Assembly (NCBI GenBank): GCA_035556715.1
Contig: DATMER010000055.1
Span: forward strand, 554-64,553
Direction of reading: 5' to 3'
Length of the DNA stretch: 64,000 nt
From: Thermoanaerobaculia bacterium
Lineage (GTDB): Bacteria; Acidobacteriota; Thermoanaerobaculia; Multivoradales; UBA5704
A model generated the notes under the pieces. That model was not told the origin of the DNA, made no database searches, and saw only the letters and a program-made list of their open reading frames with translations. Each line of letters opens with the position of its first letter. The stretch's first letter is position 1. Of this stretch, positions 52,742-64,000 are shown piece by piece. The position numbers and the translations under genes were made by a program.

Positions 52742-53382
52742 GCAATACTGTCCAGTTAGCCGAGCGCCGGGCGGGAGGCGGTCCTCCCCCGCGCAGCGGG
52801 GGAGGACCGAGGAGGGGGCCCCGGGCGTGCGGCCATACCCTGCGGGTAGCACCTCGTACCCGGCGGGTACGGACCAATACCCGGTGGGTACGGGTCCGTA
52901 CCCTGTGCTCGCGCCTCGTACGCAGCGAGGGCAGCCTGTACCCACCGGGTACGAGGTGCTACCCGCAGGGGGCGACGGATACCCTGTGGGTACGAGGTGC
53001 TACCCGCCGGGTACGAGGTCCTACCCTCCGCGTACGGCCGATACCCTGCGGGTACGGGCTGCTACCCTCCGCGTACGCCTCGCAAGGAGCGCGTACGGCG
53101 CAGAACGGCAGGGTATGGGTCGTACCCGCCGCGTACGCTTCCTGCGCGCTCCGTACAGCGTAGAACCGTCGCGTACAGGGTACGGCCCTCGGGTATGGTG
53201 CTCTACCCGGCGCGTGCGCCTCCCGGACGCTTCTTGGACTGAGACCGAGGACGGGAGGGGGGCGTCGATGGCTTCTTGGAAATGCCCCGGTTGCTTCGCC
53301 GCCCCCTCCTAACCTCCTCCAGTCCCAACCCCTTCCCTCCCCGGGGGAGGGACCCCTCACACCGCTAACTGGACAGTATTGC
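52742..53382. mobile_element. 641-bp non-autonomous TIR element (MITE-like) with 8-bp target site duplication
   Basis: Perfect 19-bp terminal inverted repeats: GCAATACTGTCCAGTTAGC (52742-52760) and GCTAACTGGACAGTATTGC (53364-53382). They are flanked by direct GCTTTACC at 52734-52741 and 53383-53390. The element holds no credible transposase ORF. Its interior is array B plus GC-rich hairpins (52780-52808, 53335-53351). Confidence 0.9.
52829..53217. repeat. Array B: ~19 degenerate units of ~20-21 bp built on TACCC-N3-GGGTA palindromes
   Basis: Approximate consensus is CGnnnnnnTACCCnnnGGGTA. At least seven units carry a perfect TACCC-N3-GGGTA (e.g. 52836-52848, 52981-52993, 53002-53014). The array lies entirely inside the TIR element. 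Confidence 0.85.
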
Positions 53383-61665: not shown

Positions 61666-61828
61666 ACCTCACCCCCTGTCCCCCTCTCCCATCGCACACC
61701 CATCCCCCGGGAGAGGGGGAATACCGCCGCAGCCGAGGCGGCTTGATCGAAGGCAAAGACGGTTCGGAAACGTCCCCCTCTCCCGGTCGGGCGGGTGTGC
61801 GATGGGAGAGGGGGACAGGGGGTGAGGT
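61666..61828. repeat. 163-bp palindromic element: perfect 36-bp inverted arms separated by a 91-bp structured core
   Basis: The arm at 61666-61701 (ACCTCACCCCCTGTCCCCCTCTCCCATCGCACACCC) is the exact reverse complement of 61793-61828, checked base by base. The core holds further hairpins (TCCCCC-N6-GGGGGA at 61703-61720, and CCGCC...GGCGG). The element fills the whole gap between two convergent stop codons. Confidence 0.9.
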
Positions 61829-61829
61829 T

Positions 61830-62471
61830 TCAGAGCCCGGCCAGCAGCGACCGCACCTGCTCCAGCTCGTCCTCGCTGACGGTGTGCGGCATGCCCGGGT
61901 AGATCTTCTCGGTGACCGTGGCGCCCCTCCCTGTGAGGACCTCGGTCGTCTCCTTCACCCGCGCCAGGGGGATGTGCGGGTCCCGGTCGCTGCAGCCCAG
62001 GAAGACCGGCGTGCCGTCGAAGGAGCCCGGATAGTCGCGGGGTGTCCCCGGCGGACCGATGAGCCCGCCGGAGAGCCCCACCAGGCCGCCGTATCGACGC
62101 GCGTTCCGCGCGGCGTACTCCATGCTGAGGCAGGCTCCCTGGGAGAAGCCGAGCAGGACCGTGCGCTCCGGCGGGATGCCCTCCGCCTCCAGCCGGGCGA
62201 CCAGATGCCCGATCAGCGCCAGCCCGGAGGACAACCCCGGCTCGTTCTTCTCCATGGGAGCCATGAAGCTGTACGGGTACCAGGTGTGCCCCGTGGCCTG
62301 GGGTGCGAGGTACGCCAGGTCGGGCCGGCCCAGCTCGCGCCCCAGGCTCAGGATGTCCTCGGCCGTGGCGCCACGGCCATGGACCAGGATCATGGCCGCC
62401 TTCGCCTGCCCGAGAGGACGGCCGGCGGCCAGGACCCGCTCGCCCAGGTGAGGAGGGTGGAGAGCGCTCAC
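61830..62471 (-). CDS. Phospholipase/carboxylesterase family alpha/beta hydrolase (MhqD-like)
   Basis: 213-aa ORF with the nucleophile elbow LLGFSQGACLS. It overlaps the upstream dioxygenase gene by 4 nt. Confidence 0.88.
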   Translation of the reverse strand: MSALHPPHLGERVLAAGRPLGQAKAAMILVHGRGATAEDILSLGRELGRPDLAYLAPQATGHTWYPYSFMAPMEKNEPGLSSGLALIGHLVARLEAEGIPPERTVLLGFSQGACLSMEYAARNARRYGGLVGLSGGLIGPPGTPRDYPGSFDGTPVFLGCSDRDPHIPLARVKETTEVLTGRGATVTEKIYPGMPHTVSEDELEQVRSLLAGL

Positions 62472-63421
62472 ACCGCCACCTCCTTCCGGAGCTCGATCCT
62501 AGGCAGGATGCCTTCGATCTTCTTCCGATCAAGCTCCAGCCAGGGCGGCAGCTTCAGGTCGGTGCCCAGGGCCTCCACCGGCTCGTCCGCGGTGAAGCCC
62601 GGCGGGTCCGTGGCGATCTCGAAGAGCACGCCGCCCGGCTCCCGAAAGTAGACCGAGTGGAAGTACTGCCGGTCCAGGATCGGGCTCACGTGGAAGCCCC
62701 GGCCGACCAGCTCCTCGTGCCAGGCGCGCTGGTTGGTGTCATCGGGCGTCCTCCAGGCCACATGGTGAACCGTTCCGGCCGCGACGTGCCCCCGCGGCGC
62801 GCTCGGGCTGCCCAGGACATCCACCCGCGTGCCGGCTCCGGCGTCGAAGCGGAAGCGGTCGCCGAGCTGGCCCGCGGGGCGGAACCCCAGAAGGCCGGTG
62901 AGCACCTCGGAGGTCACCTCCGGGTTCCACTCGGTCAGGGTGACCCCCGAGAAGCCGCGGACGGCATGCTCCACCGGAACCGGACCGCCCTCCCAGGGTT
63001 TCCGGTCATCTCCGCGGGCGACCAGCTCCAGCAGCAGGCCGTCCGGATCCCGGAGCGTCAGGACCTCCTCATCGAAGCGCTCGTCGAAGCGCGGACGCGG
63101 GGCTTCGTGGTCGATCCCGAGCCGATCCAGCCGCTCGATCCACCAGCCGAGGGAGCCCTCCGGCACCGAGAACGAGGTCACCGTGGCCTGACCGGCGCCG
63201 TGGCTCCCCAGGCGCGCCATGGGCCAGGGGAAGAAGGTCAGGATCGTGCCCGGATGCCCCTCCTCGTCCCCGTAGTAGAAGTGGTAGGTCCCCGGATCGT
63301 CGAAGTTCACGGTCTTCTTGACCAGCCGAAGCCCCAGGACCCCGGTGTAGAAGTCGACGTTGACCTGCGGATCCCGCGCGATCGCGGTGACGTGATGGAT
63401 GCCCCCGATCTGTCTGTCCAT
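62468..63421 (-). CDS. VOC-family ring-cleaving dioxygenase (MhqE/MhqO-like)
   Basis: AAGGAG lies upstream of the ATG at 63421 (MDRQIGGIHHVTAIARDPQVNVDFYTGVLGLRLVKKTVNFDDPGTYHFYYGD). It has two VOC modules. The 5' extension of the 390-aa ORF runs into repeat array C and was rejected. Confidence 0.88.
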   Translation of the reverse strand: MDRQIGGIHHVTAIARDPQVNVDFYTGVLGLRLVKKTVNFDDPGTYHFYYGDEEGHPGTILTFFPWPMARLGSHGAGQATVTSFSVPEGSLGWWIERLDRLGIDHEAPRPRFDERFDEEVLTLRDPDGLLLELVARGDDRKPWEGGPVPVEHAVRGFSGVTLTEWNPEVTSEVLTGLLGFRPAGQLGDRFRFDAGAGTRVDVLGSPSAPRGHVAAGTVHHVAWRTPDDTNQRAWHEELVGRGFHVSPILDRQYFHSVYFREPGGVLFEIATDPPGFTADEPVEALGTDLKLPPWLELDRKKIEGILPRIELRKEVAV

Positions 63422-63441
63422 GTCCCCAGCTCCTTTCACCC

Positions 63442-63476
63442 GTTCCAACAGGAATGTATTCCATCGGAACCGTTCC
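63442..63476. promoter_or_regulatory. Cluster of GGAA(C/T)/(A/G)TTCC half-sites upstream of the dioxygenase gene
   Basis: GTTCC-N4-GGAAT-N2-ATTCC-N3-GGAAC-N1-GTTCC lies 21-55 nt upstream of the ATG at 63421 (minus strand). It is a possible operator. Pattern only. Confidence 0.3.
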
Positions 63477-63491
63477 TCGCCCCATCCCCTC

Positions 63492-63785
63492 GCATGTACA
63501 TCCGAGCAGCTTGTCTGTACATACCCTCGACTTGGGAGCATCCCCGAGTCGCTCGGGTATACAGTTGAGCCGCTCCTCTGTACACCCCAGTCGCTCGGGT
63601 GCATTCCCGAGTCGCTGCGATGTATATGCGAGGCTATCAACTGTACAGTTGAGGCTCTCGGATATACAGCCGAGCCGCTCGGTTGTACAGCCGAGTCGCT
63701 CGGCTCCGCATCCGAGACCCTCGGATGTACAGACCAGTCGCTTGGCTGTACATCCGAGTCGCTCGGGTCTCTAGCCCGAGTGATA
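63492..63785. repeat. Array C: 14 degenerate tandem units of 21 bp (GGnTGTACAnCCGAGTCGCTC)
   Basis: The array has a strict 21-bp register. Seven units carry a perfect TGTACA and two carry TATACA. CCGAG-TCG-CTCGG palindromes bridge unit junctions. The array fills the divergent intergenic region between the dioxygenase gene (start 63421, -) and the fadE-like gene (start 63797, +). Confidence 0.9.
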
Positions 63786-63796
63786 ATCTCTCTCCG

Positions 63797-64000
63797 ATGA
63801 CCTCCTGGCTCCTCAGGTTTGCCAAGGGCAAGATCCCGCGGATCTCCGAGACCGAGCGCCAGGCGCTCGAGGCGGGGACCGTCTGGGTGGACGGCGAGCT
63901 CTTCTCCGGCCGGCCCGACCTCGGACGCATGCTGCGGGAGCCCTACCCCACCCTCACCGGGCGCGAGCAGGCCTTCCTCGACGGCCCGGTCGAAACGGTC
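63797..64000 (+). CDS. fadE: FadE-type acyl-CoA dehydrogenase (5' partial, runs off window)
   Basis: ISETERQALEAGTVWVDGELFSGRPD...LTGREQAFLDGPVE parallels the E. coli FadE segment [23 protein letters not shown]...LTAEEQAFLDGPVEE, recalled from memory. Confidence 0.8.
   Translation, partial: MTSWLLRFAKGKIPRISETERQALEAGTVWVDGELFSGRPDLGRMLREPYPTLTGREQAFLDGPVETV

Follow-up and report, generated by a model that had tools for sequence, protein, structure and literature searches.

A 21-bp tandem array between two divergent genes of a Thermoanaerobaculia genome: probably an old copy of a dispersed repeat element

The spacer between a dioxygenase gene and an acyl-CoA dehydrogenase gene in a Thermoanaerobaculia genome is largely filled by a tandem array of 21-bp units, called array C. 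This array is probably an old, decayed copy of a dispersed, non-autonomous element which carries a 21-bp array and which is tolerated here between two promoters. Array C is not an operator made for its flanking genes. Most likely, array C belongs to a genus-restricted family within a lineage-wide class of non-coding, hairpin-bearing 21-bp arrays. The behaviour of these arrays is that of inserted, dispersed DNA: an orthologous spacer may hold one in one sister species and none in another, spacers of any type are occupied and either orientation occurs.

Array C lies near the end of the window, which is the whole stretch of 64,000 nucleotides that was analysed. The window is part of contig C55 of the MAG of a soil bacterium of the Thermoanaerobaculia (Acidobacteriota), whose assembly comprises 7.84 Mb in 149 contigs with 67.4% G+C. 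Here, the genome carrying the window is called G000 and the other G numbers designate the genomes compared with it. The features of the locus, and the orthologous spacers, are collected in Table 1.

Table 1. Features of the array C locus in window coordinates, and the orthologous spacers of congeners
Feature	Position or length	Strand	Basis or content
Glyoxalase/ring-cleavage dioxygenase-superfamily gene (mhqO/mhqE-like)	62471..63421	-	PF00903, E = 6e-20
Dioxygenase Shine-Dalgarno sequence AAAGGAG	63430-63436	-	in left edge of spacer
GGAATGTATTCC palindrome, 12 bp, conserved left edge	63451..63462	.	alignment of congener spacers
Inserted DNA, 313 bp: 25-bp non-repeat leader (63467-63491) plus 21-bp array	63467..63779	.	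comparison with empty site of G001
Array C (13 units and one degenerate, 21 bp each)	63492..63785	.	register layout, TRF, three-species consensus
TGTACA starts in array C (n = 7)	63495, 63516, 63579, 63642, 63684, 63726, 63747		
TATACA starts in array C	63558, 63663		
TGTATA start in array C	63621		
Perfect CCGAG-N3-CTCGG hairpins across unit junctions (n = 5)	63545, 63671, 63692, 63713, 63755		
TGATAATCT, extended -10-like motif (TGnTAnnnT)	63781..63789	+	alignment of congener spacers
FadE-type acyl-CoA dehydrogenase gene, 5' part	63797..64000	+	PF02771, PF02770, PF00441, PF09317
G001 spacer	68 bp		no array
G004 spacer	82 bp		no array
G006 spacer	78 bp		no array
G000 spacer	375 bp		TGTACA array
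G003 spacer	356 bp		TGTACA array
G005 spacer	543 bp		TGTACA array and an extra palindromic insert
G008 spacer	305 bp		unrelated 21-bp unit CCGCTTCGTCTGAAGCCACGG
G007 spacer	335 bp		unrelated 21-bp unit CCGCTTCGTCTGAAGCCACGG

When array C is cut into 21-mers, 13 units and a degenerate 14th are obtained with zero indels, confirming the strict register of 14 units that was described originally. The consensus is GGCTGTACATCCGAGTCGCTC, in which each unit combines a CCGAG-N3-CTCGG hairpin with the sequence nTGTACAn. Rotation of this consensus separates a 13-bp hairpin from an 8-bp palindrome. The array accordingly has two dyad centres, which are 10.5 bp apart, and it is nearly its own reverse complement. 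The seven TGTACA and two TATACA hexamers counted previously were all located, together with one TGTATA, as were five perfect hairpins bridging the unit junctions. The spacing of the palindromes at 21 bp, or about two helical turns, was likewise described correctly. The remaining 63.7 kb of the window contain four copies of TGTACA, which is close to the number expected from base composition.

The units are unevenly preserved. TRF reports periods of 21 and 42 at 63642-63766 only, that is, in the better-kept right half, because the left half of the array is more degenerate. Approximately every third unit tends to a GTGCAT-type variant. This degenerate look is explained by a 63-bp higher-order repeat, which is seen in a copy of the family in congener G005 (L165) and which consists of two TGTACA units followed by one GACGCA/GTGCAT-type unit. 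The same repeat accounts for the pattern of odd units that is shared between species. As a single strand, the array C stretch folds at -177.5 kcal/mol vs -107.6 kcal/mol for shuffles (z = -12.6). Rfam, searched at a permissive threshold, returned only sub-threshold look-alikes of miRNA precursors, which are long hairpins, and no CRISPR match. A CRISPR array was rejected on the latter result and because the units are contiguous, without unique spacers. A coding reading of array C, in heptapeptide repeats, was set aside because no reading frame is maintained across its degenerate units.

The genes on either side had been identified as mhqE-like and fadE-like, and both assignments are supported by Pfam matches. 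Orthologues of the dioxygenase in congeners are 79-91% identical, and an alpha/beta hydrolase gene (PF02230) lies beyond it. The acyl-CoA dehydrogenase gene extends to the contig end and its domains were matched on the 549-aa translation from the contig. Overall, the neighbours of array C encode the dioxygenase, the hydrolase, an amidohydrolase, a CHAT-TPR protein and the acyl-CoA dehydrogenase. The original prediction proposed to look for a nearby regulator beyond the window; on the window side, no regulator gene was found within 10 kb of array C.

The divergent dioxygenase/acyl-CoA dehydrogenase pair is conserved in eight congeners, and its spacer is occupied in different ways (Table 1). An operator array would be conserved together with the genes it serves. 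Instead, the pair is kept in all eight, while the array is absent in three and a different family takes its place in two. In the alignment of the eight spacers, the inserts of all filled ones sit between ...TATTCCATCG / ...GGAATGTATTCCATCG and GTG(G/A)TAA(C/T)CTCTC. In G000, the junctions are at 63466/63467 and 63779/63780, with no target duplication evident by eye. The array had been taken to end 12 nt from the fadE ATG. This distance needs correction, as the insert stops at 63779 and is followed by 17 nt of ancestral spacer leading up to the ATG.

In a tree of the two genes, G001 and the pair of G004 and G006 fall outside the clade of the five filled genomes. This topology indicates one gain, in the ancestor of the five-species clade, and makes the empty spacer the ancestral state. 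Within the filled clade, the 4-fold distances are 0.18-0.29. The idea that the GAAGC unit of G007 and G008 is a diverged TGTACA unit was rejected: a 4-fold distance of ~0.2 leaves far too little time for such a change, and in G000 the GAAGC unit is no more frequent than chance would have it. As drift from one unit to the other is excluded, either the array was replaced or the site was struck twice. Occupancy of the same site by different families follows from the permissive place being so short, empty spacers measuring 5-80 bp, and from there being no other.

The likelier control elements of the gene pair are the conserved edges of the spacer. At the left edge, GGAATGTATTCC is conserved in all five filled genomes (G000, G003, G005, G007, G008) and almost intact in G001, whose site is empty. 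This palindrome would be a better candidate for a locus-specific operator than array C. At the right edge, TGATAATCT ends 7 nt before the acyl-CoA dehydrogenase ATG in G000, and TGnTA(A/C)(C/T)CT is found at a fixed 7-8 nt from this ATG in 8/8 congeners. The extended -10 consensus is TGnTATAAT. Judged by its letters, TGATAATCT would fit a promoter that does not need a -35 element, and its position suggests a leaderless or very short-leader acyl-CoA dehydrogenase mRNA. The pyrimidine-rich CTCTCTCC ahead of the ATG is not a Shine-Dalgarno sequence. A scan of 63350-63900 for sigma-70 promoters and terminators found no full -35/-10 pair and no terminator, the consensus saying little for Acidobacteriota. 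As the edges are conserved whether or not a species has the array, the putative core promoters are placed beside the insert and not inside it. The original prediction had them in or beside the array; the second option is retained and the first is dropped, with the promoters themselves remaining putative.

The family to which array C belongs is present at other loci. A genome scan for TGTACA arrays had been called for, and the motif TGTACA-N-CCGAG-N3-CTCGG-N-TGTACA, with few mismatches allowed, brings the total in G000 to four loci with unrelated neighbours. The copy on C28 has ~9 units and directly follows the stop of a VapBC pair. On C3, the stop of a large gene is followed by 4 units, and the copy on C32 is a TATATA variant with an AbrB-like gene adjoining. 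No DNA-binding gene consistently neighbours the copies of the family, which lie beside the dioxygenase/ACAD pair, VapBC and a large exported protein. Nor was a small basic protein gene found beside them, with an ORF clustering that would overlook small proteins of high divergence. In G005, the family occupies at least three other loci; three arrays of ~12 units there sit where G000 has different DNA. In G007, the dioxygenase site carries the CCGCTTCGTCTGAAGCCACGG-type family, and TGTACA and GTGCAT arrays are found at two other loci.

Among 41 genomes from 11 genera of the taxonomic family, the motif was found in its own genus only (G000, G005, G007) and in none of the 10 other genera; the reversed pattern, used as a control, gave 0 matches. 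Compared with the other members in several registers and on both strands, array C reaches 66-75% identity with each of them. It was not found to have a leader, a tail or inverted-repeat ends in common with any other copy. The family has multiple intergenic, non-orthologous copies, with empty sites in congeners, as MITE-like elements do.

The TGTACA family is one of many in this genome. Self-matches were counted across the whole genome in 84-bp windows at >=70% identity for a given lag. Here, lag 21 yields 5966 matching windows and its multiples 42 and 63 yield 7109 and 3410, vs 376 at lag 20 and 0 at lag 22, and no unrelated lag rises above ~600. The lag-21 peak is equally strong in 400 kb of the congener G005, present in 200 kb of G016, which is of another genus of the same family, and weak in G025, of the same order. 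When arrays are defined as merged TRF rows with periods of 20-22 bp and multiples and a length of >=63 bp, the genome contains 252 arrays, which total 52 kb or 0.67% of the genome. The longest have up to ~40 units. No account of arrays of this kind in Acidobacteriota turned up in full-text searches of the literature.

The units of these arrays fall into ~74 families, the largest of which comprise 37, 18, 17 and 12 arrays. Families were defined by 80% identity over rotations and strands, a threshold that shuffled units never reach. Palindromy among the units is common and not universal; stems of >=6 bp are present in 22% of units vs 3.7% of shuffles. With a crude GC3-based gene caller, 90 arrays were placed in co-directional, 64 in divergent and 63 in convergent spacers, the remaining 35 being located at contig ends. 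For comparison, the genome has 1111 co-directional, 449 divergent and 340 convergent spacers of >=100 bp. Promoter regions are neither preferred nor avoided by the arrays. Within families, neither an orientation bias relative to the flanking genes nor a preference for the stop or start side was found.

Evidence that arrays can be copied came from a comparison of all arrays together with 150-bp flanks, which yielded 148 pairs with HSPs of >=80 bp at >=85% identity. Family 1, which includes array B of the window (52829-53217), forms an element of ~500 bp. At least 10 copies of it exist that are 86-97% identical, a figure which takes in their non-repeat leader and tail. As family 1 is copied with its flanks, arrays travel as whole elements. 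Array C has neither a close copy nor shared termini; it is probably an old copy.

A search for the agent of this movement centred on PF01797, which has eleven matches in the genome: nine are ~310-aa Y1-domain genes and one is IS200-like. The best NCBIfam match of the ~310-aa genes is the REP-associated tyrosine transposase NF047646, at 44-47 bits vs a cut-off of 80. These genes have conserved sequences of their own upstream and downstream. Two to three of the nine adjoin arrays, of different families, and most copies have no array nearby; arrays of three families abut the left end of Y1 elements (C10 and C110 in G000, L165 in G005). A RAYT was rejected as the mobiliser, since no match exceeds the cut-off and the Y1 genes are IS-like, with their own ends, and not consistently near arrays. 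Among the PF01797 and NCBIfam matches of the genome, no transposase or other mobilising agent tied to the arrays was found.

The arrays of G000, G003 and G005 have probably decayed since their common gain. They are colinear in length (13 units and one), have one consensus and are 62-64% identical. Hypervariability in unit number, which the original prediction had listed as an argument against itself, is not seen, with 13-14 units in three species. Orthologous units are 62.9% identical, as compared with 57.5% for non-orthologous units between species and 58.0% within species; these values indicate that there is no concerted evolution. Only in the closest pair, G003-G005, does a shift of the pairing by whole units reduce identity more than slightly. 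A clear unit-by-unit orthology by position was rejected for G000 vs G003, where shift 0 is no better than other shifts. With 71-80% identity, 4-fold sites in the flanking genes have diverged less than the interior of the array.

Within the units, TGTACA positions are kept at 67-95% (mean 81%) and the remaining positions at ~55%. In the family, 9/75 hairpins are perfect. Hairpin pairing reaches 2.79 of 5 pairs vs 2.58 +/- 0.09 with shuffled partner arms, a weak covariation with few compensatory changes. Template switching at quasi-palindromes restores palindromes without selection. The units thus appear to be decaying with their cores partly maintained, and the candidate causes are such template switching or selection for binding.

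The strongest alternative is a docking track, which we regard as a possible but doubtful reading. Here, the arrays would be same-face sites for small dimeric DNA-binding proteins, with one specificity per family. Their roles, to be taken with the same reserve, would be to organise the nucleoid, to titrate the proteins or to serve in segregation, and a copy lacking a partner gene would work in trans as an orphan site. Several observations that weigh against an element favour this track. The sharp two-helical-turn period holds across families of unrelated sequence and differing hairpin geometry, which selfish spread alone does not explain. The TGTACA core is better conserved than the rest of the unit, as selection for binding might bring about. 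Three species agree in consensus, register and unit number (13-14), with zero indels over 13 units in G000 and G005. In addition, of ~60 HTH_3+TPR paralogues, 13 have an array within 1.5 kb downstream vs ~3 expected, an approximately four-fold excess. The element is also burdened by the lack of a mobilising agent tied to the arrays and by array C sharing no leader, tail or target duplication.

However, ~74 families in one genome would demand equally many specificities, and the TGTACA copies have no DNA-binding gene consistently beside them. Most units are degenerate and their pairing is not kept by compensatory change. Furthermore, divergence between orthologous units outpaces that at 4-fold sites in the flanking genes, and families are gained and lost between congeners. 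A related proposal, which is unlikely, treats the arrays as a functional system of mobile cassettes, whose phased palindromes would stay at exactly two helical turns because oligomerising DNA-binding proteins read them, for example the expanded family of HTH+TPR paralogues. Copies like array C would then recruit the protein and reshape local transcription or nucleoid structure.

Turnover of the arrays was followed at ten other loci of G000, for which the joined flanks were used as a query across the genus and the fetched sites were read. At C111:13721, G000 has 8 units of the GTGCC family and G001 has 1.5 units. At this site, G007 has a 21-bp family with the same stems in another loop partition (4-11-4-2 vs 5-4-5-7), G002 has an unrelated 21-bp family, and a palindromic, MITE-like insert takes up the site in each of G008, G005, G009 and G010. 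The locus C105:112390 is filled by 21-bp families in G000 and G003, which are unrelated to each other, and by inserted genes in G008. G010 and G002 are empty at this locus, with two stop codons 5-15 bp apart. The array at C114:40087 measures 195 bp in each of five species and is possibly coding.

The contrast between a 1.5-unit seed in G001 and 8 units in G000 is what local slippage would produce, and array C is without termini common to other copies. Growth of array C in place from resident sequence, unrelated to other loci, is improbable nonetheless: its unit is not derived from the 68-bp ancestral spacer, the unit family is found at at least four G000 loci and elsewhere in G005 and G007, and sister families are copied with non-repeat flanks. 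Pure replication slippage without function, which was the original alternative, is not the whole story, as the family is dispersed.

A dedicated operator or UAS array, in which a local dimeric regulator would cooperatively bind TGTACA and co-regulate both divergent promoters, was suggested originally by the position between divergent genes, the helically phased palindromic hexamers and an end at the -10 region of the right gene, and is now very improbable, being largely refuted by the comparison of intact pairs with empty or replaced spacers and contradicted by copies at unrelated loci, including the 3' ends of genes, by ~250 arrays genome-wide, by the lack of a regulator gene in the 10 kb on the window side and by a better candidate in the conserved palindrome outside the array.

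How a decayed element could have come to fill this spacer can be outlined as follows. A single insertion, as the orthologous spacers show, put 313 bp between what would be back-to-back core promoters, of the dioxygenase operon and of the acyl-CoA dehydrogenase gene, in the ancestor of the five-species clade. Its arrival as a discrete element is suggested by the behaviour of sister families. The insertion may have been tolerated because the right promoter, if of the extended -10 type, would be independent of any upstream element, and because the left edge retains its own palindrome and ribosome-binding site. The insert would have settled in the only stretch able to accept DNA. Thereafter, the units probably decayed one by one, while whole-unit slippage and template switching at quasi-palindromes may have kept the period and the palindromic cores. 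Most likely, the present effect of array C is that of a passive 300-bp spacer, able to form a cruciform between the two promoters.

For the locus, this result is deflationary, as no 14-site operator controls the gene pair. For the genome, ~0.7% consists of arrays of one sharp 21-bp period, whose dozens of unrelated families turn over between sister species. Knowing the cause of the period and the mover would add a new type to the bacterial interspersed repeats, which include REP/BIME, MITEs, BOX and MIRU. There are practical consequences as well. The arrays break short-read assemblies, with 35/252 located at contig ends, and they create spurious ORFs, such that gene annotation of these genomes would need masking.

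Of the known systems, plasmid iterons and centromeres resemble array C in geometry only. These include the seven 22-bp iterons of R6K, the twelve 43-bp repeats of F sopC and R1 parC. Such arrays adjoin a rep or par gene on their replicon and are bound by its product (Rep, ParB/ParR/SopB). The likeness lies in direct repeats about two helical turns apart, each with a small dyad, in 7 to 14 units. In contrast, there are ~250 arrays here, which are chromosomal and turn over between species, and the TGTACA copies have no adjacent partner gene.

The REP/BIME sequences of Proteobacteria are palindromic repeats tagged with GTAG/CGTC, and Acidobacteria have TIR-flanked tyrosine transposases (Di Nocera et al. 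2013, PMC3733652). As in REP/BIME, the arrays are built from short, imperfect palindromes which are extragenic, present in many copies and divided into several families per genome. In addition, they are present or absent between close relatives, have occasional in-gene copies and form clusters of many units. A REP unit is a palindrome of 20-40 bp that can fold into a stem-loop; here, each 21-bp unit has the 5-3-5 hairpin CCGAG-N3-CTCGG, and the ~310-aa Y1 genes resemble the TIR-flanked transposases. However, the units are strictly head-to-tail at 21 bp, whereas REPs alternate in inverted orientation with variable linkers. Array C has GTAC, in TGTACA, and neither the GTAG nor the CGTC tag; some other G000 families (TACCC-N3-GGGTAG) carry GTAG. 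Finally, there is no RAYT above the cut-off and none flanking the arrays, and divergent promoter regions are not avoided here.

In the BrickBuilt MITE of Porphyromonas gingivalis, a leader and a tail enclose a minisatellite of 23-nt units that follow one another without spacers (Klein et al. 2015, PMC4596501). It is present in ~19-20 intergenic copies per genome, has a limited host range and shows promoter activity (PMC4596501). The arrays described here differ from it in having dozens of unrelated unit families and units that bear hairpins. They resemble it in their spacer-less tandem units of about two helical turns, and the ~500-bp element of family 1 has the same build of leader, array and tail. 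In array C, a 25-bp leader exists, which is common to no other copy; the class as a whole fits the pattern.

The spacer between the divergent dioxygenase and acyl-CoA dehydrogenase genes, which holds the TGTACA-family array (array C), also contains a short palindrome that lies inside a larger nested arrangement, GTTCC-N4-GGAAT-GT-ATTCC-N4-GGAAC. This palindrome, kept across species whether array C is present or absent, could be the operator of a local, perhaps MhqR/MarR-like, regulator; no such regulator was found within the window. In one congener, G005, the TGTACA array has an additional palindromic insertion at its left border, and this spot continues to accept insertions. The coordinates of these and the other features are collected in the table.

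Further features in the window and elsewhere (G000, genome under study; C, contig; C55, the contig of the window)
Feature	Location	Remarks
Palindrome GGAATGTATTCC	window 63451-63462	upstream of dioxygenase gene
Extra palindromic element, ~185 bp, GAAGCCCCGAAGGGGCGCAGGCATATAGCCTGGGGTT...	G005:C3, spacer positions 46-230	orthologous spacer
Palindromic MITE-like element	window 61666-61830	between convergent amidohydrolase and hydrolase genes
Array B	window 52829-53217	copy of dispersed element, ~500 bp
~310-aa Y1 protein family	G000:C55:1-553; also C10, C110, C117, C73, C48, C28, C98, C124	C55 copy immediately before window
21-bp array, unit AGCTCCTCGTTGGTCGTCTGC	G000:C114:40087-40281	adjoins predicted gene
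Phd/YefM-like antitoxin and PIN-domain (VapC-like) toxin pair	G000:C28:157083-157816	
HTH_3 + TPR paralogues (examples)	C45:4400-5896; C14:15158-16540; C76:112150-113364	

The MITE-like element has arms of ~50 bp (ACCTCACCCCCTGTCCCCCTCTCCCATCGCACACCC...), and its matches to Rfam miRNA precursors are all sub-threshold. Its motif also adjoins several other arrays, and two congeners (G009 and G010) carry it at their orthologue of another array site, C111:13721. The element that carries array B is built of a non-repeat leader, TACCC-N3-GGGTA(G) units arrayed with a 21-bp period, some of which bear a GTAG tag, and a tail with inverted units. It looks recently mobile, and at least 10 genomic copies share 86-97% identity (for example C136:169000-169500, and others on C96, C30, C107 and C79).

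The ~310-aa proteins have an HUH/Y1 transposase domain at the N-terminus; their top match is the model for REP-associated tyrosine transposases, with a score under that model's cut-off. As every one of these genes is flanked by conserved sequence, both upstream (..CCAGGAATGACATT..CGTTTTCCGTCT..) and downstream, they look like insertion sequences of the TIR-flanked tyrosine-transposase type. In G000 and G005, 21-bp arrays directly adjoin three of the gene copies.

Not every array may be non-coding: the one on C114, which measures 195 bp in each of five congeners, could be a heptad repeat that is translated. Elsewhere, another TGTACA-family array begins right where the antitoxin/toxin pair ends. 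Finally, 13 members of a large family of HTH_3 (XRE) + TPR paralogues (~60 loci in G000) have a major-family 21-bp array no more than 1.5 kb downstream, which is ~4 times the expectation. These proteins often carry a C-terminal ..DPxLRF motif and their architecture is RNPP-like.
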